This document shows, piece by piece, positions 19,451-34,282 of a DNA stretch of 64,000 bases (the stretch's first letter is position 1; every line of letters begins with the position of its first letter). The translations under genes were made by a program, and so were the position numbers. The stretch spans positions 6,082-70,081 of the forward strand of contig JBFMFR010000027.1 in assembly GCA_040752025.1 (NCBI GenBank), given 5' to 3'. The notes below the pieces were generated by a model. That model did no database searches. It saw only the letters and a list, made by a program, of their open reading frames with translations, and had not been told where the DNA came from. The stretch comes from Chloroflexota bacterium. GTDB taxonomy: Bacteria > Chloroflexota > Anaerolineae > Anaerolineales > UBA4823.

Positions 19451-20038
19451 TTACTCCTTCGTAGATAGAAATTTCATGAAAGTCTCCACCAGCGCCTGGC
19501 GCTTGACGCGGATGACGCTGCCTGCGGAAACGTAGGCCTGTCGCAGGCGCAGGTAATCGTCCAGTGTGGCGAACAGGAAAGCCAGCGCCATGCCTGGGTC
19601 AACCTGTTTGTAGAGGCCCAGGGCGGTGCCCTGCTCCAGGGCCTGGTAGAAATAGCTGCGCACCGCTGCTTCCCGGCCCAGGATGGTGCGCCTGAGTTCA
19701 GGAGGATAGAAAGGTTTCTCCCGGGCAATGACAACGAAGAAATCTTCCTCGCGCTCGAGGAAATCCAGGTAGATGTGCAACATTTCGACCAGATCATGTG
19801 AACCGTGCAGGCGCAGATAGAGGTCATTGGTAACTTGCAGCAGTTCCCGGTCCAATACTTCGAGCAGCAAAGCTTCTTTGTTCTGGAAGTGGAAGAAGAC
19901 CGTGCCATGCGCCACACCCGCCCGCCGGGCGATCTCGAGCGTCGAGACGTTGAGCAGGCTGTTTTCGACCAGTTCTGCCTTGGCGGCAGCCAGGATCTTC
20001 AGGCGGGTTTCTTGCTTGGTTTCGGCGCGGGTCGGCAT
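19451..20038 (-). CDS. TetR/AcrR family regulator
   Basis: 'IARRAGVAHGTVFFHFQNKEALL' HTH. Confidence 0.9.
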   Translation of the reverse strand: MPTRAETKQETRLKILAAAKAELVENSLLNVSTLEIARRAGVAHGTVFFHFQNKEALLLEVLDRELLQVTNDLYLRLHGSHDLVEMLHIYLDFLEREEDFFVVIAREKPFYPPELRRTILGREAAVRSYFYQALEQGTALGLYKQVDPGMALAFLFATLDDYLRLRQAYVSAGSVIRVKRQALVETFMKFLSTKE

Positions 20039-20065
20039 GGTTCGTTTTTCATCAAAACATTTTGT

Positions 20066-20127
20066 TGAGTATACACTCATTGAGTGTATACTCAGCGTAG
20101 TATAATCCAAAAGATTCCTCCTGTCAA
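20066..20127 (-). promoter_or_regulatory. Promoter TTGACA-N17-TATACT with perfect 14-bp inverted repeat operator at +1
   Basis: tgtcaa 20122-20127, agtata 20099-20104; TGAGTATACACTCA-T-TGAGTGTATACTCA at 20066-20094. Confidence 0.85.
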
Positions 20128-20377
20128 GACCCGCAACAATAGGAACCAACACGGAGAACGCGGAGAAGAACCACAGAGTGCACGGAGTTTACTGTAGAAA
20201 AGACTCGGGGAACTCCATGGTTTCATTGCGACTAATGGATTTCATCTCTCACCACGAAGAACACCAAGAACACGAAGATTTTTGGTAAAGCATCCGTGAG
20301 CGGTTTTTGCCCCCCGGCAACCACATGCGCCGCATCAAGAAACCGATTTCTTTCCTCCTACTTCTACCTTCTAACCT

Positions 20378-21331
20378 CTACCTTTGCTCCCCGCGCCCTT
20401 CATAGATCCTCAAAAAGACCACGCCGCCCAGGATCATCAGGCTGCCCAGCAACTGCATGCCGCCCAGGCGCTCGCCCAGCAAGAAGTAGGCGATCACAGC
20501 GGTGAAGGCCGGCTCCAGCGTGACGATCAGGTTGGCCACGCTGGAGGAAAGATAGCCCAGGCTGACGTTGTACAACCCGAAGCCGGCCACGGTGGGCCCG
20601 GCAGCCAGCAAGAACAGCACCCCCCAGCCGGCCAGGGCTTTGCCCAGCCAGAAGAGCTGCGCCGGGTGCGCCACCGAGCCGGGCAGCGGCTGGCCGGGCA
20701 GCAGGCTGAAGACCAGCAAGAACAGCGCGGCAAAGCCGAACGTGTAGAGCAGCGTGCTCCAGGGGTTCAGGCCACGCTGGTTGGCCGAGCGCCCCATCAG
20801 GCTGTAGATGGCGTACAGCAGGCCGGAAAGCACCCCGGTGAGGATGCCCAGCAGGTTGGCCTGCCAGACCCCGGGCAGCAGCGCCCCAGAAACCAGGTAA
20901 CAGCCTGCCAGGCTGAAACAGACCGCCACGACTTTCGCCCAGCCCAGGCATTCTTTGAGCAGCCACCAACCCAAGAGCGCGGTGAAACCGGCCGAGCAGT
21001 ACACCAGCACGGTCGAGACAGCCGCCCCGTTGAGCGCAACCGACAGGGTCCACAAAGCGTTGAAGATCGCCAGCGCCAGGCCGTAGCAGGCCAGGTAAGG
21101 CAGGTGGCGGCGCTCGACGCGCAGTAAGGCTGGACGCAGCCAAGCCAGGACCGGCAGGAGCGTCAGCGTCACGAAGCTGTCGCGCCAGAAAGCCAGCACC
21201 AGGGAAGGCATGTGGTAAGTTTGGGTCAGGTAGCGGATGAAAATGGCTGTTGTAGACAGGATCACCGCGCTGACCAGGGCAATCGAATAGCCACGCGTCA
21301 GATCGGAGCGAGGGGAAACAAGCGCAGTCAT
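20378..21331 (-). CDS. EamA/DMT family transporter
   Basis: 10 TM in two repeats; 'LEPAFTAVIAYFLLGERL'. Confidence 0.9.
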   Translation of the reverse strand: MTALVSPRSDLTRGYSIALVSAVILSTTAIFIRYLTQTYHMPSLVLAFWRDSFVTLTLLPVLAWLRPALLRVERRHLPYLACYGLALAIFNALWTLSVALNGAAVSTVLVYCSAGFTALLGWWLLKECLGWAKVVAVCFSLAGCYLVSGALLPGVWQANLLGILTGVLSGLLYAIYSLMGRSANQRGLNPWSTLLYTFGFAALFLLVFSLLPGQPLPGSVAHPAQLFWLGKALAGWGVLFLLAAGPTVAGFGLYNVSLGYLSSSVANLIVTLEPAFTAVIAYFLLGERLGGMQLLGSLMILGGVVFLRIYEGRGEQR

Positions 21332-21370
21332 GGTTGAAGCAGGACTCCTTTCGTTTTGGTGTTCCCATTT

Positions 21371-21506
21371 TAGCCAGAATTGGCTATCTGCAAAGGGCCA
21401 ATTTTGAGCAATATCTACCAGGCCACTTAAGTCTCTCTTGCAAAATTCAACCAGATTGGCCTGATATCATGATAGAATTAACGCAGAATATCATCCAGCC
21501 AATTTT
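21371..21506. promoter_or_regulatory. Repeated ATTGGC/GCCAAT boxes, candidate MocR operator
   Basis: attggc 21379 and 21455; gccaatttt 21397 and 21498; palindrome TAGCCA-GAAT-TGGCTA 21371-21386. Confidence 0.55.
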
Positions 21507-21520
21507 CGAGATTGAAAGCT

Positions 21521-23014
21521 ATGCGCATTGCATTGGAACGCGACGGCAAGACTCCACTCTACCAACAGATCGAAGCTTATTTACGCCAGGCGATCCTGGC
21601 GGGCAGCCTGCCACCCGAGACGCGCCTGCCCGCCAGCCGGAAGTTGGCCAGCGACCTGGGCGTCAACCGCATCACCGTGGAGAAAGCCTACGCCGGCCTG
21701 GAAGCCGATGGACTGGTCTTCTCGCAGGTGGGCAGCGGCACCTACGTGCTGCCGCCGCCCGGCCCGCCCCAGGCGCGGGCGGCCCCCGGCGCGCCCTGGC
21801 CGCTCTGGCAGCAGGAATTGCAGGCCAGGCAGCCGGTTGCCTCGGCCCCTGCTCCGGAGATACTGCTGGCCGAGGCCGGGCATCCCGACCCCATCGATTT
21901 CTCCAGCGGCAGCGGCGACGCGCAGCGCTTCCCGGTGGAAGAACTGCGCAGGGTGATCCAGGCGATCCTGCGCCGGGATGGCATCGCTGCCCTGGAATAC
22001 GGCGAGCGCGGCTGCAGTGAGCGCGGCTACACGCCGCTGCGCAGCACCATCGCCCAGGTGCTGGCCAGCCAGGGCTTGCCGGCCGGCCCGGAAAACATCC
22101 TGATCACTTCCGGGTCGCAGCAGGCCCTGGCGCTGGCAGCCCAGGCGCTGCTCCAGCCGGGGGAAGTGGTGCTGGTCGAAAGCCCCACCTACAGCGGGGC
22201 GCTGGAACTGTTCCGCCTGCTGGCGCTGAGGATCGCCGGTGTGCCGGTGGACGACAACGGCCTGCAAATCGAGAAGCTGGAAGCGCTGCTGCAACAGCAG
22301 CACCCGAAGCTGATCTACACCATCCCCAATTTCCACAACCCAACCGGCGCCTGCCTGAACGCGTCGCGCCGGCGCCAACTGGTGGAGCTGGCCGGGCGTT
22401 ACAACCTGCCTATCCTGGAAGACGACTTCGTGGGCGACCTGCGCTACGAAGGCCGCACCCAGCCGGCGCTGAAAGCGCTCGACCCGGACGGCAGGGTGGT
22501 CTACACCAGCACGTTTTCCAAGATGCTGATGCCCGGGCTGCGCGTGGGTTTCCTGGTGGCCTCCGGCCCGGTGTACGAGCGCCTGGTGGCCGGCAAGCGC
22601 GTCAGCGACCTGGCCACCTCCAGCCTGACTCAGCGCGCTCTGGAGGCCTACGTGACAGTTGGGCGCTACCAGGCCCACCTGCGGCGCTCATGCCAGGTGT
22701 ACCGCAAACGGCGGGACGCCATGCTGCACGCTATCAAGCGCTACCTGTCCAGCGGGGTGCAGTTCTCTCCGCCACAGGGCGGTTTGTTCGTCTGGCTGCG
22801 CCTGCCTGGCGCGCTGAACGCTGAAGACCTGCTGCCCCTGGCCTGCGAGCAAGGTGTGGCCTTCGCTCCCGGCGGGCGCTTCTTCCCGGCAGACGCAGCC
22901 GTAAACGCAGGTTACCTGCGCTTGAACTTCGCCGTGCAAACGCCGGAGCGCATCCAGGCGGGCATGCAGCGCCTGGGCAAGGCGCTGCGCAGGCTCAAAG
23001 CGGGCGCGGCCTAG
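21521..23014 (+). CDS. MocR/GabR-type GntR regulator with PLP aminotransferase domain
   Basis: GntR wHTH 'LPASRKLA.DLGVNR.TV..AY'; 'PNFHNPTG', 'TFSKML.PGLRVG'. Confidence 0.92.
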   Translation: MRIALERDGKTPLYQQIEAYLRQAILAGSLPPETRLPASRKLASDLGVNRITVEKAYAGLEADGLVFSQVGSGTYVLPPPGPPQARAAPGAPWPLWQQELQARQPVASAPAPEILLAEAGHPDPIDFSSGSGDAQRFPVEELRRVIQAILRRDGIAALEYGERGCSERGYTPLRSTIAQVLASQGLPAGPENILITSGSQQALALAAQALLQPGEVVLVESPTYSGALELFRLLALRIAGVPVDDNGLQIEKLEALLQQQHPKLIYTIPNFHNPTGACLNASRRRQLVELAGRYNLPILEDDFVGDLRYEGRTQPALKALDPDGRVVYTSTFSKMLMPGLRVGFLVASGPVYERLVAGKRVSDLATSSLTQRALEAYVTVGRYQAHLRRSCQVYRKRRDAMLHAIKRYLSSGVQFSPPQGGLFVWLRLPGALNAEDLLPLACEQGVAFAPGGRFFPADAAVNAGYLRLNFAVQTPERIQAGMQRLGKALRRLKAGAA

Positions 23015-23873
23015 CCGCCTGCTGCTGGCTCCAGGCTTCCAGGGTGATAGATGGTGCGCCGAGCAGGGCATTAGCCTGTTCGGGGTGCTCCTCGAACCGC
23101 ACCGTTTCGCAGTAGCGGAAGAAGGGCAGCACGCCCTGCAACTGCTTGCGATGCCCCAGGATGGCCACGATCCACGTCACCCAGATGGGCATGTAGACCA
23201 GGCGCGCTTCGGGATGAACGATGCGGCAGAAAATTTGCAGCGCCTGGCGCATGCTGAGTTTTTCGGGGCCGGCCACATAGAGCACCTTCCCGGCTGCTTC
23301 GGGCGTGGCGTAGGCGCGCGCCACCATGCGAGCGTAATCGGCAGAAGCGATCCACGAATAAGGCGTGGGGTGTTTGCCGATGTGCAGAGCCATCTTACCG
23401 CGCACCAGGTTGTGCAGCACTTCCATGAAGAAATTGTCGCGGAAGATGGTGTAGGGGATGCCGCTGGCCTGGATGGCGGTTTCAGCCTGGAACTTGGCGC
23501 GCGTGCCGGGGTACCAGCAGTTTTCCTGGCATACCGAGGCCCCCGAGGTGTACGTGACGCGCTGCACGCCGGCTTTGGCCGCGGCGCGCACGGCATTTTC
23601 AGCGCCGCGCCGTTCCAGGTCGTAATCGAAATTGTCTTGCAGGTTGATATGCACGCCCTGGCAGCCCTGCATGGCCGCATCCAAGGAGGCAGGGTCTTCC
23701 ACGTCCCCGGCTGCGATCTCGAACGGCTCGGGGAACAGAGCACGCGCCTTGTGGGGAGAGCGCGTCAGCACGCGCACGGCGAAGCCTTCCTCGGCCATGC
23801 GGCGGGCCACCGGCTGGCCCAACATGCCTGTGCCCCCGATCACCAGAATCTTCGAGATTTGTTCTGCAACCAT
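22995..23873 (-). CDS. NmrA-like NAD(P)-binding oxidoreductase
   Basis: 'ILVIGGTGMLG' Rossmann motif. Confidence 0.85.
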   Translation of the reverse strand: MVAEQISKILVIGGTGMLGQPVARRMAEEGFAVRVLTRSPHKARALFPEPFEIAAGDVEDPASLDAAMQGCQGVHINLQDNFDYDLERRGAENAVRAAAKAGVQRVTYTSGASVCQENCWYPGTRAKFQAETAIQASGIPYTIFRDNFFMEVLHNLVRGKMALHIGKHPTPYSWIASADYARMVARAYATPEAAGKVLYVAGPEKLSMRQALQIFCRIVHPEARLVYMPIWVTWIVAILGHRKQLQGVLPFFRYCETVRFEEHPEQANALLGAPSITLEAWSQQQAARPRPL

Positions 23874-23999
23874 TTGATCGCCTCCCAACCTACAATTTCT
23901 CCTGGACCATTGCCAGGGTTTCGTCCAACCAATCCAGGTAAGCCTGTTCGTGCAGCTCGCCCATGCGGCGGGTGGCCGGAAGTCAATCCCCAGGATGGC

Positions 24000-25097
24000 C
24001 TACTGGCTGACCTCCCAGAAGATCTTATCAGGCAAGGTCAAATCCGGGATGTAGAAGATCTTGACCAGGTCGGTAAAGGGGCCCAACCAGCACACGTAGC
24101 CTTCTAGAGATTCGCCGGCTGGTACATAGCCAGTCAGGAAAGGCTCGCACGAGTCATACTCTCGCTCTAACTGGACGCCATCGCTGTTGCTGGCGTAGAA
24201 ATTGAAATCCGCTTCAACCGACAGTTCTTCGCTGCCGGTGTTCTGAACCGTGAAATAAACCATCAATAAATCACCGTCGAACTCGGCGCTCTCCAGCGTG
24301 ATGGTCTGGTTCTCCAGTTGCACCGGCAAACCCAACAACTGGGCCTCGCCGCCATCGGAGGTGGATTCAGGCGTGATGGTCGGGGTTGGAGTCAAAGATG
24401 CCACAGGCGTGGTGGCTGAGATCGTCAGCGTTTGGGTGATCACAGGCGTGTCCGAAAGGAGCGGCTGCTCAGTCGGTTCACTGGGGGGCTCCCATTCCCA
24501 ACTCAGCGCCGGTGTGGCAGGTATCGCCAGCGGTAAACCATCCAAGACGCGCACCGTGGCGCTGAAATGATTGAACTCGGGCAGGTCGATGCGCAAGAAA
24601 TCAGCCGGAGACAGGCGCTGCTGCGTGCTGGCGCGCGGCAGCAGCACCGCGCAGGTGACCGCCAGGCTGCCGAAATACTCATCGATGTCATTGCCGGCGT
24701 AGCAGGAATAAGCTTTCTGGGAGAGCGTGCTTCCAAAGATGTACACATCGCTCAGGTAGAGCTTGAGCACGAGTTTGCCATGTATGAGCGGCTCTTCGCC
24801 GAACAGCACTGCCCCATTGGTATCCACTGTATCGATGCGAATGGCAAGCTGTTCACCCTGCACTCCGGCATATACGCTGCGCAAACATACCGGACCATTA
24901 CAATACTCCAGAGGCAAAGCCGTGGGAGGCACAGGTGTGGCAGTTTTGCGCGGCTTCGAGGTTGGCGTGGAAGAGAACTGCGCCTGTTTCGAGCTATCTG
25001 CAGAACCCGGCAAAGCGCAAGCCAACAGCATGAGCAGAAGCGCGATCACAGCAATTCTAGGTCTGAGCGAACGTTTTGAAAAATCAGCAGCTTTCAT
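24000..25097 (-). CDS. Lipoprotein with C-terminal DUF4352-like Ig domain
   Basis: LLAC lipobox, Thr/Pro linker, 'V.FTVQNTG.EEL.V...F...G...G.V.W'. Confidence 0.65.
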   Translation of the reverse strand: MKAADFSKRSLRPRIAVIALLLMLLACALPGSADSSKQAQFSSTPTSKPRKTATPVPPTALPLEYCNGPVCLRSVYAGVQGEQLAIRIDTVDTNGAVLFGEEPLIHGKLVLKLYLSDVYIFGSTLSQKAYSCYAGNDIDEYFGSLAVTCAVLLPRASTQQRLSPADFLRIDLPEFNHFSATVRVLDGLPLAIPATPALSWEWEPPSEPTEQPLLSDTPVITQTLTISATTPVASLTPTPTITPESTSDGGEAQLLGLPVQLENQTITLESAEFDGDLLMVYFTVQNTGSEELSVEADFNFYASNSDGVQLEREYDSCEPFLTGYVPAGESLEGYVCWLGPFTDLVKIFYIPDLTLPDKIFWEVSQ

Positions 25098-25204
25098 GGT
25101 TTTCGTCCTGCAAGCCTGGATTACTGCCCATTATACACTGCGATACGCCTGTAACGAGCCTGAAATGCGCGCGTGTGATGGGGTGTTGCCTCGCGAACAT
25201 ACTC

Positions 25205-25254
25205 GCCGGGGGATGAATTCCCCCGGCTACACAGCTGCGCCCCGTGAACGGGGC
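25205..25254. repeat. GTAG-type REP-like double palindrome
   Basis: gccggggga-tgaat-tcccccggc-tac, then gccccg-tgaa-cggggc. Confidence 0.6.
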
Positions 25255-25320
25255 TTCTTAGCCGATTTGATCTAACGCGACTGGATAAGCCGGCCGGACC
25301 AGCTCGGTATTGCCGAAATA

Positions 25321-26532
25321 CTAATGCGGCTTGCGCCGGGTAGCGGCGATCTCGCTGACCGCCCGTACGGCGGTTTGGATATGTTCTTCCGTATTGAACG
25401 GGCCAATGCCAAAGCGCACCGCGCCGCGGATTTTGTCGGTGCCGAGCTGCGCGTGCACCAGTGGGGCGCAGTGCAGGCCAGTGCGGCACAGCACGTTGTA
25501 GTCCACATCCAGCAGGGTGCCGACATCGGCGGCGTCCATGCCTTCGACATTGAAAGCCAGCACGCCGATGTGGTCAGTCAAATCATCCTGGCAGTACAGG
25601 ATCACGCCGGGGATGGCGCTCAAGCCATCACGCAGCAATTGCAGCAAATGCATTTCGTGGGCTTCAACGTTCTCCAGGCCTTGCTTCAAAAGCCATTTCA
25701 CCCCGGCGTTCAGACCGGCGATGCCCATCGTATTGGGCGTGCCATATTCCAGGCGGAAGGGGTATTCGTCCAGGTGGGCGCGGTCGGCAGAGCGCACGCC
25801 TGTGCCGCCGGCGCGCGTGTGGCGGATCTCGATGCCTTCGCGCACGTACAGGCCGCCGATGCCGGTCGGGCCGAGCAAAGATTTATGCCCGGTGAAAGCC
25901 ACCACATCCAGGTATTGTTCCTGCATGTCGACAGGGATCTTGCCAGCCGACTGCGAAGCGTCGATGGCAAAGGGGATGCCCGCCTGGCGACAATAACGCC
26001 CGATCTCGCGGACAGGCTGCACGCTGCCAATCACGTTCGAGGCATGGTTGACGATCACCAGACGGGTGTTCGGGCGGAAGCGCCGGCGGATTTCATCGGG
26101 GTCCACGAACCCGGCCCCATCGAAGGGCACGTAATCGACCTGTACGCCCTCTCGCGAGAGGTGATACAACGGGCGCAGGACTGAGTTGTGTTCGATAGTG
26201 GTTGAAATGGCATGATCGCCGGGGCGCAGCATGCCGAAGATGATCAAGTTCAAGGCATCGGATGAGTTGTAGGAAAAGCACAGCCGATCCGGGTCCGTTC
26301 CGTTGAAGAACCCGGTCAGCAGCTTGCGCGTGTTCTCCACCACAGCCCCCGCCTCCAGGCAAAGGTCGTAGCCCGAGCGCCCGGGGTTGACCCCGAAGTT
26401 GCGGTAGAAGTAGTCCATGTAAGTATAGACTTCTTCAGGCTTGGGGAAAGAAGTGGCCCCATTATCTAAGAAAATGTAATCGGGCTGCTTCATCTGGGCG
26501 CTACGTTCGGCGAGTTTCGGTTCGATTGTCAT
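25321..26532 (-). CDS. Cysteine desulfurase-family PLP enzyme (aminotransferase class V)
   Basis: 'FLDNGATSFPKP', 'EHNSV', 'FTGHKSLLGP.G', catalytic 'RTGLHCAP'. Confidence 0.92.
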   Translation of the reverse strand: MTIEPKLAERSAQMKQPDYIFLDNGATSFPKPEEVYTYMDYFYRNFGVNPGRSGYDLCLEAGAVVENTRKLLTGFFNGTDPDRLCFSYNSSDALNLIIFGMLRPGDHAISTTIEHNSVLRPLYHLSREGVQVDYVPFDGAGFVDPDEIRRRFRPNTRLVIVNHASNVIGSVQPVREIGRYCRQAGIPFAIDASQSAGKIPVDMQEQYLDVVAFTGHKSLLGPTGIGGLYVREGIEIRHTRAGGTGVRSADRAHLDEYPFRLEYGTPNTMGIAGLNAGVKWLLKQGLENVEAHEMHLLQLLRDGLSAIPGVILYCQDDLTDHIGVLAFNVEGMDAADVGTLLDVDYNVLCRTGLHCAPLVHAQLGTDKIRGAVRFGIGPFNTEEHIQTAVRAVSEIAATRRKPH

Positions 26533-26547
26533 TCAAGCCTCCTTGAG

Positions 26548-26585
26548 AAAAATAAAAAAGAGCCCGTGCACCAGGCAACGGACTC
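26548..26585 (-). terminator. Intrinsic terminator (attenuator) in the desulfurase leader
   Basis: GAGTCCGTTGC-CTGGT-GCACGGGCTC followed by TTTTTTATTTTT, just upstream of the AAGGAGG RBS. Confidence 0.85.
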
Positions 26586-26725
26586 TATATACACAACGAC
26601 CCCTGCGTACAACAACAGGCCTCTGCAGCTTGGGGTGTCACGTCCTGCGCCCAACCATTGAGCGCAGGACAGGTACAGATGCAATTACAGGGCTGGCGGA
26701 CTGGCGCCGCGGTAAAAACGTTCAT
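26585..26725 (-). CDS. Cys-rich leader peptide MNVFTAAPVRQPCNCICTCPALNGWAQDVTPQAAEACCCTQGSLCI (46 aa)
   Basis: Hand-translated; GGAGTGG 8 nt before ATG; 8 Cys codons; stop overlaps the terminator stem. Confidence 0.7.
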   Translation of the reverse strand: MNVFTAAPVRQPCNCICTCPALNGWAQDVTPQAAEACCCTQGSLCI

Positions 26726-26838
26726 CGGGGTAACCACTCCAATCCATTAAAGCACGTTTTGAGACGGCTGTCAGGTGTCATTTGTCATGACCAGATCTGT
26801 CAATCATGATGAACGCTTTAGCAAGTCCGCTGCCCGGA

Positions 26839-27363
26839 TTATGCGCGGCTTACATCTTCAACACTTAATAGAACAAGTTCCCCAATCTTTTGAGTTGAGA
26901 TCAAGAAGCGGATACGCTGCGAAACTTTGCCGGATGTATCGTCACTCAGCGACTGATCGAGCGTGGCAGGAACCCGCTGGCGGGGCTGACCGGTATTCAA
27001 AGTTTCCGTGACCGTTCTACGGATGGTGCAACCGCTGCAATGGATGGTGTGGCCACAGCCTTCCGGCAGGCGGGCATGCACACATTCAAACACATCCCCA
27101 CCAAGGCGGCCTTCAATCGCAGGTAAGGGCTTTTTCAGCAACTGGCGGGCAGGCTGATTCGCAGATCTAACTCTACCATCTCCATCCACCAGCAGTACTG
27201 GCAGATCCAGGCCTTCCAGGTAATCCGGCAGAGGTATGCCAATCTGAGCCTTCAAGTGGAAAGCGCAATCCGGACAAATGCCGTGCGTCACCCAATTCTG
27301 ATGCTCAGAAGCGGGCACAGACTCATCCAGAAGTTTGCCACACCAGGCGCAGATTTTTTCCAT
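26839..27363 (-). CDS. Small Cys-rich PAS-like protein
   Basis: 'CAWC...HGICPDC' plus PAS-like 'PVLLVDGDGRVRSAN..A' and 'C.HA....GCG....CSGC'. Confidence 0.75.
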   Translation of the reverse strand: MEKICAWCGKLLDESVPASEHQNWVTHGICPDCAFHLKAQIGIPLPDYLEGLDLPVLLVDGDGRVRSANQPARQLLKKPLPAIEGRLGGDVFECVHARLPEGCGHTIHCSGCTIRRTVTETLNTGQPRQRVPATLDQSLSDDTSGKVSQRIRFLISTQKIGELVLLSVEDVSRA

Positions 27364-27460
27364 GCTCAATCCTTTATCGAGTTGCGCAAGAGAAACTGGT
27401 TTCATGAGTGGGAGTGTTGTCCGCCCCGATTATACTGCTATATGGCGTTGAACAAGGCGG

Positions 27461-27539
27461 TTAAAATGCAAACGTCCGAGTGAGGGGGGCACCCGGACGT
27501 TTGCGCCTTTATATTACCTCAGGTGTGGAAATTTTGCAA
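27461..27539 (-). ncRNA. Candidate ~45-nt hairpin sRNA (copy 1) with promoter TTGCAA-N17-TAATAT
   Basis: Promoter 27539-27511; RNA from ~27504: GCAAACGU-CCGGGUG-CCCCCCU-CACUCGG-ACGUUUGC-AUUUU. Confidence 0.6.
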
Positions 27540-27586
27540 GGGTGATTCGATTAATTTTCGATGAAATGCCTAATCCCAGAGCCTGC

Positions 27587-28597
27587 TCAGGCGCGCAATT
27601 CGATGATATCCCCGTCTTGCAAGACGTAATCGCGCTGCACCATTTGCCCATCGAAGGCGGCGCTGCCCCACACGCGCGCCGACTTCAGGTTGTTGTAAAA
27701 ATCACGGTGGACTTTGGCCGCCAGATCGATGACCGTGCAGCCGCGCTTGAGCACAAAAGGGCGCGCCAGGTCGGGCTCCTGACCTGGCGGGCGGGCATAC
27801 ACGCGCACCACATCCAGGGCCTCAAAAACCCGCCGCTTGAACTCATCAAAATTGCGCCCGGTGAGCACTGAGATGGGCAGCATCGGGCAGGGTACGTCGC
27901 CAGGCGTTTCAGAGACCAGCAGCTCGCATAAGACCTCGAAATCTTCGTACAGGCGTTGGTCATCGCACTTGTTGGCCAATACCAACAGGGGCTTGAAGAC
28001 AAAACGCGGCAGGTCAGCGAACTGCTCCCGGCGTTGTACCGGCGCCAGGCGATGCTCGTACAGCAAGTTCAAAGCGTCTTCGAGCTGCTGCAAGGGATCA
28101 TCTTGCAGATCGACCATCAGCAGGATCAGGTCACAGCGGCGCAGCAGATCGAACAGGCCCGGGTCGACAAAACCAGCCGGATCCAGGGGCGGCGTATCGA
28201 CAAGCTGGACCTGAACGTTCTCCACCAGCAGCATGCCCGGCGTGGGTTTCCAGGTGGTGAACGGGGCTGCGGAGACTTCGGGTTCGGCGTTGGTCAGGGC
28301 GCGCACCAGGGCTGACTTGCCCACGTTGGTGGCCCCGACCAGCACCGCCTGCCCGGCGCCCTCTTTATCGATCTGGAAAGTCGAAGCGTGCCCACCGGTT
28401 TTCTTGCGGGCCTGCTGGGCATCGGCTTTGAGCCTGGAAAGCTGGCGGCGCAGGTCGGCGCGCAGCTTATCGGTGCCCTTGTGCTTGGGCACCGTGCTGA
28501 TCAATTCCTCCAGAGCCGCGGCCTTCTCGGCCGGACTCTCTGCCTGGCGGAAGCGCTTATCGGCTTCGAAGTAATCGGGCGGCAGGTTGGTAGGCAT
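27587..28597 (-). CDS. DRG/OBG-family GTPase with TGS domain
   Basis: 'PKHKGT', 'VGATNVGKS', 'PFTT', 'DTPP', 'NKCD', TGS end 'LQDGDIIEL'. Confidence 0.9.
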   Translation of the reverse strand: MPTNLPPDYFEADKRFRQAESPAEKAAALEELISTVPKHKGTDKLRADLRRQLSRLKADAQQARKKTGGHASTFQIDKEGAGQAVLVGATNVGKSALVRALTNAEPEVSAAPFTTWKPTPGMLLVENVQVQLVDTPPLDPAGFVDPGLFDLLRRCDLILLMVDLQDDPLQQLEDALNLLYEHRLAPVQRREQFADLPRFVFKPLLVLANKCDDQRLYEDFEVLCELLVSETPGDVPCPMLPISVLTGRNFDEFKRRVFEALDVVRVYARPPGQEPDLARPFVLKRGCTVIDLAAKVHRDFYNNLKSARVWGSAAFDGQMVQRDYVLQDGDIIELRA

Positions 28598-28663
28598 GCG
28601 TTCTTACTCCCAAGAGGGATTATACCCTGAAGGGATTCTGAACCAAAATACTTGAGACGAAAG

Positions 28664-29545
28664 CTATAGCAAGTTGAAGATATGGATTGACTGGTCCTTC
28701 TCGGTACAGTGTTTGGATTGTTCGCCAGGTTTACGTTTATCTGAAACAACCACAATCTGAGTCGGAGTGATCCAGTTCACCCCCTCAACGTTACAGTACA
28801 GGATATTGCCATCCGGGTCCCGGGGGAATTGATAAACCCGGCCATTGTCCACCCATTCCCAGCGATCCTCGCACAGTTGACCAACCCACAGCGCCGAGGT
28901 CATCTGCGAAACAACCGCCAAGCGATGGTTGTCAGCGTCCAGGCAGGCATAATCCTCGAATGCGACCGACTCGGGCAGCTTGAGCGTACCGCGATGCTCC
29001 CATTGGGTGTCACTGCGCTGCAACAGTTGGATGCGCCCACCGCCAGGTTTACGGCCCTCTTTACCGGCGCGGCACTTGTTGCTTTCGCACAACCCAAGCA
29101 GATAATCTTCACCGCCATGCCGAATGTAAGCGAGCCCCTCCATGCCTTTGTTCAAACCCTGCAAGGGAAAATCCACCCAGGCATTGCCCAAATAGCGAAA
29201 GTCTTCGGTGTATTCCTCGATGTTGGGTTTGTACGTATTCTCATCAAAGATCAGGGCTTCCAAGATTACGAGAAAGTGTTTGCTGGTTTGGTGATAAGTG
29301 ATGTCTTCGAAGCCAGTCGACTCACCACGCTGGCGTATCAGTGTATTGGCTGGATGGCCGGGCGCCAAGGATGCATCCAGCCGGGCGATGTGCGGAGAAT
29401 TGTCGAAGATCACGTAGAAACGCCCATCCTTGAGGCACACGCCGCTGGCTTCCATACGGTCATCGACGCTTTTACTGGGCAGCAGGGCATGAATCTTGCA
29501 TTCCTGCACCAATTGAAGGGTGGGATAAGATTGGATTTCAGACAT
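28664..29545 (-). CDS. Hypothetical beta-propeller protein
   Basis: Repeated E-G/D-hydrophobic blades (EASGV, EDITY, EGLAY, EGVNW). Confidence 0.65.
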   Translation of the reverse strand: MSEIQSYPTLQLVQECKIHALLPSKSVDDRMEASGVCLKDGRFYVIFDNSPHIARLDASLAPGHPANTLIRQRGESTGFEDITYHQTSKHFLVILEALIFDENTYKPNIEEYTEDFRYLGNAWVDFPLQGLNKGMEGLAYIRHGGEDYLLGLCESNKCRAGKEGRKPGGGRIQLLQRSDTQWEHRGTLKLPESVAFEDYACLDADNHRLAVVSQMTSALWVGQLCEDRWEWVDNGRVYQFPRDPDGNILYCNVEGVNWITPTQIVVVSDKRKPGEQSKHCTEKDQSIHIFNLL

Positions 29546-29619
29546 ACAGCCTCCTCGAGATCGGTAAAATAATTGTATCAGGTGAGGCCTGGTTCTTGCC
29601 AAAAACCGGAGCGCAGGTG

Positions 29620-29647
29620 TTGACACCTCCCACCTTTGGGGTATAAT
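29620..29647 (+). promoter_or_regulatory. tRNA promoter TTGACA-N16-TATAAT
   Basis: Consensus boxes 20 nt upstream of the tRNA. Confidence 0.85.
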
Positions 29648-29667
29648 AGCGCCGCTAAGTACATAAC

Positions 29668-29743
29668 GGTCCCGTAGCTCAACTGGCAGAGCAGTTGACT
29701 CTTAATCAATTGGTTACAGGTTCGAGTCCTGTCGGGATCACCA
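29668..29743 (+). tRNA. tRNA-Lys (CTT)
   Basis: 76 nt cloverleaf; anticodon arm gttga-ctCTTaa-tcaat; TTCGA T-loop; encoded CCA. Confidence 0.97.
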
Positions 29744-29752
29744 GGAACGACC

Positions 29753-29780
29753 CGCCCGGTTATAAACCCGGGCGTTTTTT
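29753..29780 (+). terminator. Intrinsic terminator of tRNA-Lys
   Basis: cgcccgg-N8-ccgggcg-tttttt. Confidence 0.85.
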
Positions 29781-29865
29781 CTCTATGCACCATCCGGGGA
29801 AATAAAGAACCAGTCATCCAATAACATGGTATGATGATATTCACACCACCGGGGAGGAACCGGCG

Positions 29866-30399
29866 TTGCGCGATGACGATCTTCGAGGCTTCCTCCGCAA
29901 CCGGTCCAAATGGGCCGTTTTCAGGGAGATTACTGCTATGCCAACGCTTTCTGAAGACCTGGAACACTATTGGGACGAAGCCTATACCCACAAAGATATC
30001 ATCGCCGGGCTCAAGCTGCTGGCTGAGTTTGCGGGATTGGTGGGCCTGGGGATCACGGCCGGGATCGGCGGGGCGTGGGCGCTCTCTTTGATCCTGGGGC
30101 CGTTCGGCATCCCGGTCAGCGCGGGGGCGGTGTATCATGGCATCGTCAAGCCCATCCTGGAATGGTACAGCAAACTGGAAACCGAGGAGCGCTTCTACGT
30201 GCGGGCGGCGGTCAACGCTTTCAACCCGGCGCAGCACCTGCAAATAGCGGGCGAGGCCATCGATCACGTTGACGAAGTCGCCGTGCTGATCGATATCCTG
30301 CGCAAGGCACTGGACGTACACAAGATCGCCGGGCGCTCAGCCAGCGCCCTGGACACGGCTGCCAAGGCCGCCAAGGCGGTTTTCAAGCGGAAAAAGTAA
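29866..30399 (+). CDS. Hypothetical protein with central glycine-rich hydrophobic hairpin
   Basis: GGAGG RBS, TTG start, GC3-rich codon usage. Confidence 0.6.
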   Translation: MRDDDLRGFLRNRSKWAVFREITAMPTLSEDLEHYWDEAYTHKDIIAGLKLLAEFAGLVGLGITAGIGGAWALSLILGPFGIPVSAGAVYHGIVKPILEWYSKLETEERFYVRAAVNAFNPAQHLQIAGEAIDHVDEVAVLIDILRKALDVHKIAGRSASALDTAAKAAKAVFKRKK

Positions 30400-30451
30400 A
30401 CAGAATATAGCAGCTATTGGACAGCTAAAACAAACAACAGAGGCTTTCAAC

Positions 30452-30946
30452 ATGAACGATCCAAGCAACGACCAGCCAGACATCCACTTCAAACGGATCA
30501 ACGCCACTACGGCCCTGCAAATCTGCAAGCTCAGCGAGACGCTCTCGCCGCCGCAGCGCAGGATGGTGGCCGACAACGCCATCTCGATCGTGGAGGCGCA
30601 CTTCTCGGAGAACGCCTGGTTCCGGGCGATCTACGCTGATGAAACACCGGTCGGGTTCATCATGCTGCACACCGGCTCGGATTACGATGACGGCATCGAC
30701 TGCCCGGGGGTGTTCCTGTGGCGCTTGATGATCGCCGGGCCATACCAGGGCCTGGGCTATGGCAAACGCGCCATGCAAAAGTTGTTCGAACACCTGCAAG
30801 CCCAGGGCGTGCCGCGGCTGTATACCAGTTGCGGCCTGGGCGAGGCCAGCCCGGAGGATTTCTACCGCAAGCTGGGCTTCATACCTACCGGCGGGATGTA
30901 TGGTGATGAGATTGAGTTGGTGGTTGAGATCACCAGGAACGCGTAG
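30452..30946 (+). CDS. GNAT acetyltransferase (spermidine/diamine acetyltransferase-like)
   Basis: 'VADNAISI.EA', 'WRLMI...YQGLGYG', 'FYRKLGF'. Confidence 0.85.
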   Translation: MNDPSNDQPDIHFKRINATTALQICKLSETLSPPQRRMVADNAISIVEAHFSENAWFRAIYADETPVGFIMLHTGSDYDDGIDCPGVFLWRLMIAGPYQGLGYGKRAMQKLFEHLQAQGVPRLYTSCGLGEASPEDFYRKLGFIPTGGMYGDEIELVVEITRNA

Positions 30947-30955
30947 CCAACCATC

Positions 30956-34282
<3,327 letters not shown>

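Follow-up and report, generated by a model that had tools for sequence, protein, structure and literature searches.

A cysteine-codon-rich leader before a cysteine desulfurase gene of a Chloroflexota bacterium: a possible cysteine-ON attenuator and a distal candidate antiterminator

Can a bacterium use translation of a cysteine-rich leader frame to switch on, when cysteine is plentiful, an enzyme that consumes cysteine? The question is raised by a locus on the minus strand of a 64,000-nt stretch of DNA (the window, meaning the whole stretch that was analyzed) from contig JBFMFR010000027.1 of a Chloroflexota bacterium of the family UBA4823 (assembly GCA_040752025.1), whose genome counts 6.82 Mb in 116 contigs with a GC content of 58.7%. 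There, a gene for a 188-aa protein (27405-26839) is followed by a 306-nt spacer and by the gene of a 403-aa cysteine desulfurase (26532-25321). The spacer is most likely a transcription-attenuating leader, in which the outcome would be set by translation of a Cys-rich open reading frame (ORF); that this leader is a cysteine-ON attenuator, working by ribosome occlusion of a terminator, is a reading that we put forward tentatively. The features on which both statements depend are the following.

25321-26532, minus strand: class-V aminotransferase of the cysteine desulfurase family, group II and SufS/CsdA-like, 403 aa, the putatively regulated gene (Pfam, NCBIfam, solved relatives).
26538-26544, minus strand: Shine-Dalgarno (SD) sequence AAGGAGG of the desulfurase gene, 5 nt 5' of its ATG at 26532 (sequence reading).
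26548-26586, minus strand: intrinsic terminator with the stem 26586-26578/26567-26559, a 10-nt loop and a U-run at 26558-26548 (reading, folding).
26585-26725, minus strand: ORF of 46 codons, 8 of them for Cys, with an alternative in-frame GTG start at 26737 (sequence reading, ORF list, shuffles).

The terminator has the 5' arm AGAGUCCGU and the 3' arm ACGGGCUCU, followed by UUUUUAUUUUU at 26558-26548, and folds with -15.3 kcal/mol. It is unidirectional, the U-run being found on the minus strand only. The ORF opens at ATG 26725 with MNVFTAAPVRQPCNCICTCPALNGWAQDVTPQAAEACCCTQGSLCI and closes with a TAG at 26587-26585, the A and G of which are the first two paired bases of the terminator stem. 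This layout, a stop codon within the terminator 5' arm directly before the desulfurase's ribosome-binding site, had been proposed in an initial annotation made by eye, and it is borne out by the sequence. The terminator thus stands between the leader ORF and the gene, and between the end of its U-run and AAGGAGG there are 3 nt. Since no promoter fits into 3 nt, the desulfurase is transcribed solely by read-through, which rules out the separate promoter between terminator and ribosome-binding site that would have spoken against attenuation. A generic terminator scan lists the inner part of this terminator (GCCTGGTGCACGGGC, then the T-run), and such a scan is uninformative on its own, with 3 sites in 3 kb against 3.0 expected.

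The Cys codons of the ORF are found at positions 13, 15, 17, 19, 37, 38, 39 and 45, seven of them TGT and one TGC. The first cluster reads CxCxCxC (26689-26669), the second is a CCC run (26617-26609), and Cys45 lies at 26593-26591; the GTG at 26737, which the ORF list gives in the same frame, would add 4 codons and yield 50 aa. Sequence reading and ORF list thereby confirm the frame as first described, 26725-26585 on the minus strand with 8 Cys in 46 codons and 7 TGT. Of 20,000 shuffles of 26745-26548 that preserve dinucleotides, 0.14% contain an ORF with 8 Cys or more (P ~0.0014), so the codons of the putatively sensed amino acid (8/46) are enriched; 18% contain an open frame of 46 codons or longer. 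The TGT share of Cys codons in the long ORFs of the genome is 24.6-24.8%, and the probability of at least 7 TGT among 8 is 3.7e-4 at this coding usage and 3.5% at 50:50. A single tRNA-Cys, with the anticodon GCA, is present among the 50 tRNAs of the genome and serves both Cys codons; UGU is therefore read by wobble, which tRNA-Cys(GCA) performs under established decoding rules.

How might translation of this frame act on the terminator? In the model that we favor, the transcript would start at a promoter-like site near 26740, and a ribosome keeping pace with the polymerase would stand at the stop codon while the terminator 3' arm is made. With the 5' arm covered by the ribosome, no hairpin could form and the desulfurase would be transcribed, so that plentiful cysteine would mean ON. 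With Cys-tRNA scarce, the ribosome would wait on UGU/UGC codons over 20 nt farther upstream, where it would leave the terminator hairpin free to form and transcription would stop, so that scarce cysteine would mean OFF. Occlusion of this kind would require that the ORF is translated and that transcription and translation are closely coupled, with a pause letting the ribosome catch up. Two local hairpins lie within the frame.

26641-26671, minus strand: strong hairpin after the first Cys cluster, 14 bp including G.U, with the loop AUG (folding, repeat search).
26588-26611, minus strand: hairpin H2 (UGUACGCAG/UUGUGUAUA) over the last codon of the CCC run and Cys45 (folding, repeat search).

The strong hairpin could serve as a pause or timing element. 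By inverted-repeat search its arms are 13 nt long and 92% complementary around a 3-nt loop, and folded alone it reaches -23.7 kcal/mol; search and folding agree with the 13-bp hairpin at 26642-26670 that had been noticed after the first Cys cluster. The 5' strand of H2 has an alternative partner in the 5' arm of the strong hairpin.

The model was followed in silico by masking a ribosome footprint from +18 to -14 of the A-site and calculating pair probabilities for transcripts ending at 26556, which describe an equilibrium, whereas the real choice is kinetic. For the short transcript, starting at 26740, the probability of the terminator, P(terminator), was as follows.

No ribosome: P(terminator) 0.92.
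Ribosome at codons 13, 15, 19 or 38: P(terminator) 0.87-0.93.
Ribosome at codon 45 or the stop: P(terminator) 0.00.

UAG 26587-26585 overlaps the stem, which starts at 26586, and in these folds the terminator is abolished when the ribosome is at the stop or at codon 45. A ribosome held at either Cys cluster of the short transcript leads to one outcome, the terminator.

The start near 26740 is suggested by a cassette that recurs elsewhere in the genome.

26746-26787, minus strand: promoter-like cassette, TGACAAATGACACCTGACAG, 17 nt, then TTAAT (hexamer TTTAAT) (genome-wide 20-mer comparison).

Read as a promoter, the cassette would yield transcripts that start at about 26740. Its 20-mer recurs at six other sites of the genome, with 0-4 mismatches and followed at equal spacing by ATAAT; together with the copy in the window these make 7, describable as TGACAAAT[GA]ACAC[CG]TGACA, 16-17 nt, ATAAT. 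The other copies (C92:17737(+), C13:36700(-), C51:249167(+) and C45:6353, 4203 and 2753 (-)) precede unrelated genes, for a CHAT-TPR protein, a LIM/DA1-like protein, and pentapeptide and TPR proteins. In more than 12 further genomes of the family, near-identical stretches of 19-20 nt match the 20-mer and have the form of three TGACAC repeats (L171, L175, L192). The 20-mer may be a promoter type that these sites have in common, or a site bound by a regulator. A generic promoter scan did not list the cassette at 26746-26787. Both short transcripts and long ones, arriving from the upstream gene, were considered. The mean unpaired probability at the ORF start site is similar in the two and uninformative (0.37 in the short and 0.30 in the long transcript).

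The switch proposed here would act on an enzyme that consumes cysteine. The 403-aa protein scores 424 bits against the NCBIfam family TIGR01977 "cysteine desulfurase family protein" (cut-off 377), residues 20-395 matching profile positions 1-376; it is thus a member at full length and above the curated cut-off. It matches Pfam Aminotran_5 with 291.8 bits, and the SclA profile gives 300 bits, under its cut-off of 525. Each of its best relatives of solved structure bears the name cysteine desulfurase, of the SufS/CsdA kind, with 5b7s on top (E 5e-60). The translation contains GHKSLLGP, which we take to be the motif of the lysine that binds pyridoxal phosphate, and TGLHCAP, presumably the motif of the catalytic cysteine. 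The genome has 9 Aminotran_5 matches, among them a copy that outscores this one by a wide margin; the 403-aa desulfurase is therefore an accessory copy. Cysteine-ON polarity fits such an accessory cysteine-consuming enzyme. Around orthologous genes the neighbors point to a role in sulfur relay for this desulfurase family, at least as gene content tells. An HdrD-like Fer4_8+CCG protein stands directly before the closest orthologues in L004-L007 and L010, the last of which also has a DsrE-like protein nearby. A desulfurase relative at E <= 1e-60 was found in just 2 of 40 other genomes of the family (44-47% identity), and these two (L002, L003) follow Sulf_transp and TusA genes. Others among the closest orthologues directly follow a PALP enzyme (L013), a peptide-transporter permease (L008) or a GntR/FCD regulator (L011). 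The idea that the leader ORF is a relic of the Cys-rich CCG-domain gene preceding the closest orthologues was tried and rejected, as no similarity was found.

Does the spacer contain a second way past the terminator? The initial annotation had seen no convincing classical antiterminator, and within 26740-26600 this holds, nothing above chance being found there (501 of 1,000 shuffles as good). Beyond the coordinates considered at that time, an antiterminator candidate does exist. The whole spacer, 26840-26548, folds to -111 kcal/mol (z = -3.22; 1 of 200 shuffles as good; z = -2.0 for the antisense strand), and three elements upstream of or within the ORF take part in long-range pairing.

26823-26837, minus strand: segment A (CCGGGCAGCGGACUU), candidate antiterminator strand, beginning 2 nt beyond the upstream gene's TAA (minimum-free-energy (MFE) folding, inverted-repeat search).
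26690-26705, minus strand: segment B, codons 7-12 of the leader ORF, up to the first Cys codon; a second possible partner of A and candidate anti-antiterminator (inverted-repeat search, folding).
26808-26819, minus strand: 5' strand of helix P2, pairing with 26726-26715 (GAUGAACGUUUU) (folding, inverted-repeat search).

The fold of the spacer is closed by a 15-bp helix, A:C, in which 26837-26823 pairs with segment C (26585-26571), that is, with the 5' arm and loop of the terminator. A:C and the terminator are mutually exclusive, which makes A:C a candidate antiterminator. Its duplex energy is -29.0 kcal/mol, against a shuffle mean of -19.9 (standard deviation 2.4), and 0 of 1,000 shuffles are as good; the pair was also found independently by the inverted-repeat search. 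It is specific for the sense strand, as the antisense duplex reaches -20.0 kcal/mol and all 3 departures from the inverted repeat are G.U pairs on the sense strand. Segment A has a second partner in B, and the duplex A:B (-24.4 kcal/mol) is marginal, 56 of 1,000 shuffles being as good. Helix P2, of 12 bp, encloses the AUG of the ORF (8 of 1,000 shuffles as good), and P2 and A:B jointly give -38.4 kcal/mol. In stepwise folds, a proxy only for co-transcriptional folding, the MFE structures of partial transcripts ending at 26640, 26600 and 26588 contain A:B, together with P2, and A:C replaces them once 26570 is reached.

A:C requires a transcript that arrives from the upstream gene, since transcripts starting at the cassette would begin downstream of segment A and would lack it.

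26839-27405, minus strand: upstream gene of 188 aa, with Cys motifs and a weak PAS_8 match, a possible source of long transcripts (translation, Pfam).

The 188-aa protein has an N-terminal CxxC...CxxC pair and a C-terminal stretch rich in Cys and His around the weak PAS_8 match. No orthologue of it was found in 400 other genomes of the class, so that it is unusable as an anchor; its PAS part alone matches in 15 of the 400, inside much larger sensor-like frames. For the long transcript, starting at 26845, the masked folds gave the following probabilities.

No ribosome: P(terminator) 0.01, P(A:C) 0.96.
Ribosome at codons 13-19: P(terminator) 0.00, P(A:C) 0.97-0.98.
Ribosome at the CCC codons 37-39: P(terminator) 0.90-0.92, P(A:C) 0.00-0.03.
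Ribosome at the stop: P(terminator) 0.00, P(A:C) 0.00, with A:B formed.

Without a ribosome, the terminated conformer of the long transcript (A:B plus terminator) lies just 3.7 kcal/mol higher, at -109.1 against -112.8. A stall at codons 13-19 thus favors A:C in the long transcript, which is the opposite polarity, and polarity is therefore not fixed by sequence. Of the cysteine-ON attenuation first proposed, the architecture and the masked folds of the short transcript stand, and the long transcript with its ribosome at codons 13-19 gives the reverse.

These results bear on a reading with classical polarity, in which the locus would be an attenuator of unusual layout that is ON when cysteine is scarce and works on transcripts from the upstream gene through A:B and A:C. 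Segment A would first pair with B, giving the terminator by default, and a ribosome held at codons 13-19 would cover B and release A to form A:C, with read-through as the result. Such a switch would explain A:C, A:B and their position beside the first Cys cluster, and it would draw on the most significant structure of the spacer: the A:C duplex that no shuffle matched and that is confined to the sense strand, the significant fold of the whole spacer, the exchange of A:B for A:C between 26588 and 26570, two conformers only 3.7 kcal/mol apart, and the long transcript masked at codons 13-19. The polarity would also be that of all known Cys leader ORFs (10.1101/834739; PMC1262725; PMC8632094). However, the frame continues for 27 codons, with a second Cys cluster and a stop codon inside the terminator. 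An unstalled, coupled ribosome at the stop would block the terminator as well, so that regulation would be lost, and a stall at the CCC run has the opposite output. Furthermore, in the very transcripts concerned, the long ones, P2 sequesters the AUG, A:B is marginal, and co-transcription with the upstream gene is putative. A cysteine consumer induced during shortage also makes little physiological sense. We consider classical polarity plainly unlikely. For promoter-proximal transcripts we lean to occlusion, with cysteine-ON as the more coherent reading, since the occlusion model accounts for the Cys codons across the whole frame, the end of the frame in the stem and the possible start just upstream. 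The helix A:C itself we regard as a real and unexplained second route past the terminator, possibly for transcripts from the upstream gene. The composite, a sensor of tRNA charging with inverted polarity plus the distal antiterminator at 26837-26823 as a second route for transcripts from the upstream gene, seems to us somewhat unlikely.

Several observations weigh against the cysteine-ON occlusion model. It leaves A:C, and P2 over the AUG, unexplained. The start context of the ORF is weak, with GGAG 12 nt 5' of the AUG, and the cassette in the window has a T at the A of the ATAAT seen in its six relatives. That A is the most critical base in promoters of the sigma-70 type. Further points concern conservation. 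Orthologous loci of the desulfurase were collected, 80 in genomes of species (52-85% identical; under titles such as Chloroflexia, Anaerolineae, Aminicenantes and Acidobacteriota) and another 80 in metagenomes (68-87%), some contigs occurring in both; 167 loci had a tblastn match to the desulfurase and 146 of these had enough upstream sequence. Under a loose criterion for a Cys-rich upstream ORF (uORF), the sense strand was positive in 6 of the 146 orthologous leaders, against 7 for the antisense control, which is background level. None of the 146 has a uORF resembling that of the window, and in tblastn with the peptide, weight fell only on the copies of the window itself. The leader showed no similarity to the 700 nt upstream of 152 orthologues (best E 1.0 in blastn and 0.2 in tblastx). 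No homologue of the peptide was found among 5.8 billion protein clusters or in the genome itself, nor was one found in 136 further family genomes, in which the best E was 0.008 and the four top matches that were opened overlap longer ORFs. The leader DNA has no match in these 136 genomes beyond chance-level ones of 17-38 nt, and no neighbor from the window was found at any orthologous locus. The lack of uORFs and of Cys enrichment in orthologous leaders had been named at the outset as an outcome against the proposal, and as worded it is the outcome obtained. The absence of relatives in these searches shows that the leader element is lineage-specific and does not show that it is inert.

Chance is the next point. 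In the whole genome, 8 Cys or more are present in 307 of 45,520 six-frame ORFs 30-80 aa long, and likewise in 16 of 6,300 intergenic ORFs of at least 20 aa, so that the Cys count alone is not unique. Some of the 16 resemble, by eye, real ferredoxin- or Zn-ribbon-like proteins, and the genes downstream of four others that were checked code for a periplasmic binding protein, a cNMP-binding protein, an FtsX permease and an MFS transporter. Some 5 further Cys-rich uORFs of the genome are evidently due to chance, a further point against the occlusion model, as is the result that other leader peptides (runs of W, H, F and other amino acids with a T-run) yielded none that is convincing in this genome. 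Ribosome-mediated attenuation is not evidently common in it. A uORF with a poly-Cys pattern precedes 21 of 3,156 genes with at least 60 nt upstream and is followed by a T-run in just 2 of the 21, one of them the present locus and the second standing before a histidine kinase gene and apparently, by eye, within the coding sequence of another gene. Elsewhere in the genome (C30:2392-2529, minus strand), a 45-aa six-frame ORF of GCWLGCCLGYCL-like repeats has 13 Cys codons and is probably a tandem DNA repeat. The coincidence of a Cys-rich uORF with the gene of a cysteine-using enzyme is notable. A rough post-hoc estimate puts it at ~0.02, from ~6 uORFs and roughly 20 cysteine-related genes (an estimated figure, not a count) among 5,530, with the overlap of stop and stem left out of the calculation.

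Such figures lend some weight to a reading without any sensing of cysteine. The spacer would then be a structured leader or the terminator of the upstream gene, and/or a switch of A:C that depends on structure only or on a factor; the Cys-rich frame would be accidental, and the desulfurase would be expressed by leak or by A:C antitermination under some unknown factor. The element is indeed a singleton without conservation and chance Cys-rich uORFs do occur, those checked before unrelated genes; a frame of this length is found in 18% of shuffles, several UGU codons lie within predicted helices of a sequence rich in U/G and in helices, the start codon has a weak context, and the structure is significant without appeal to translation. 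On the other side stand the 0.14% of shuffles with as many Cys and the estimate of ~0.02, which the overlap of stop and stem would make rarer still. A known structured leader found no support, as the Rfam 15 covariance models (T-box, riboswitches, leaders) gave no leader match at E up to 1 in 20000-33000, only a tRNA, and no family at gathering score in 20 orthologous loci. The tRNA gene concerned lies at 29668-29740 on the plus strand (RF00005, 70.1 bits). An accidental frame is in our view a serious possibility, if a doubtful one.

The frame might also encode a small protein in its own right, rich in Cys and either binding metal or accepting sulfur from the desulfurase, with a terminator of its own and a desulfurase expressed by leak; a metallothionein-like peptide had been raised early as an alternative. 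The terminator does follow the stop codon directly, a neighboring desulfurase could use a thiol-rich acceptor, and the motifs CxCxCxC and CCC are reminiscent of metal-thiolate peptides. The peptide matched no protein family, however, neither in Pfam at E up to 10 nor in NCBIfam, so that the metallothionein-like alternative drew no profile support, and homologues are lacking in the cluster collection and the genomes of the family. A gene of this kind occurs at 0 of the 146 orthologous desulfurase loci, no metal, RiPP (ribosomally synthesized and post-translationally modified peptide) or sulfur-carrier genes lie near the desulfurase gene, and 7 of the 8 Cys codons are the rare TGT. A protein product is quite improbable as the explanation, and what remains of the odds belongs to something else.

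How would a cysteine-ON occlusion attenuator relate to known systems? The pyrBI and pyrE attenuators of E. coli work by ribosome occlusion of a terminator and sense UTP through pausing of the polymerase. Engineered E. coli cases show what the position of the ribosome can do: termination fell from ~90% to <10% once a stop codon had been moved to 5 bp before a terminator, an effect lost when translation was uncoupled (PMC4824070), and a polyproline stall site before the pyrL terminator made downstream expression 26-fold lower in delta-efp (PMC5021804). With both groups the locus has in common that a translated frame would reach the terminator, that a close ribosome would prevent the hairpin without the need of an antiterminator, and that uncoupling or an upstream stall would raise termination. 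It differs in that pyrBI and pyrE sense UTP and the polyproline case, which involves elongation factor P, is a built reporter, whereas here a stall at Cys codons is proposed, with a cysteine consumer as the target. The tnaC and speFL leaders detect the free amino acid within the ribosome and act by blocking Rho. They resemble the proposed switch in that plenty of an amino acid turns ON the enzyme consuming it through a leader peptide; the difference is that sensing would here proceed through tRNA charging and act on an intrinsic terminator. To our knowledge, and in the literature search that was made, attenuators with a leader peptide that senses tRNA charging all switch ON at scarcity of the amino acid.

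With attenuators of the trp/his type, the locus shares a leader ORF containing the codons to be sensed, a terminator directly before the gene and candidate mutually exclusive helices (A:B, A:C and C:D). In contrast to them, the downstream gene is a catabolic one, a member of the desulfurase family and a cysteine consumer in place of a gene for biosynthesis or tRNA charging; the candidate antiterminator strand lies upstream of the ORF and not downstream of the regulatory codons, the stop codon is in the terminator, where the classical ones end well ahead of it, the ORF is long with 46 codons, and the codon clusters are two and separated. Nor is there the conservation expected of a classical attenuator, as no relative of the leader was found anywhere searched.

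Among Cys leaders, the polycysteine leaderless short ORFs (sORFs) of mycobacteria act on translation, their Cys tract pairing with the downstream SD; they are ON at low cysteine, conserved and situated before genes of cysteine supply (10.1101/834739). They are like the present ORF in being short, unannotated, with consecutive Cys codons at or near the mRNA 5' end, before a cysteine-related gene and with proposed pausing. In the window, the CCC run gives at least two consecutive Cys codons, and the mRNA 5' end is a predicted one, from a promoter-like site with an imperfect -10. The difference is that there is a terminator here, no pairing of Cys tract and SD in the predicted folds and no conservation; the SD of the desulfurase pairs, if at all, with the U-run and not with Cys codons. 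The cys leaders of actinobacteria have the polarity in which scarce cysteine means ON (PMC1262725). The motif uORFC-8-2 before cysS of Rhodobacterales has 145 conserved examples with two Cys codons, mostly UGC, and is presumed to switch this tRNA synthetase gene ON at low cysteine (PMC8632094). It likewise comprises a uORF with tandem Cys codons followed by a terminator stem and a U-run. Compared by its description there and by the blank Rfam scan, the present element differs as a singleton with 8 mostly UGU codons before a different gene.

Two further genes of the window were noted. On the minus strand, 30956-34282 encodes a protein of 1108 aa with a glucose/sorbosone dehydrogenase propeller, DUF11 and weak matches to multihaem cytochromes (Cytochrome_C7, MtrC/MtrF-like), and several CxxCH motifs are present in its translation. 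On the plus strand, the product of 21512-23014 has 500 aa and joins a GntR domain to a class I/II aminotransferase domain, presumably the layout of a MocR-type regulator.

If real, the leader would be a variant of ribosome-mediated attenuation and no new kind of system. Should its frame be due to chance, the locus would serve as a warning that codon-rich uORFs occur by chance several times per GC-rich genome. In either case it is a compact test object of ~300 nt, with one terminator and two competing ways to defeat it. If the cysteine-ON occlusion model is true, this would be a natural attenuator that combines known parts with the opposite sign, using coupling as the signal of plenty for a catabolic or sulfur-mobilizing enzyme, and it would provide a case in the Chloroflexota, a phylum where attenuation has hardly been studied.

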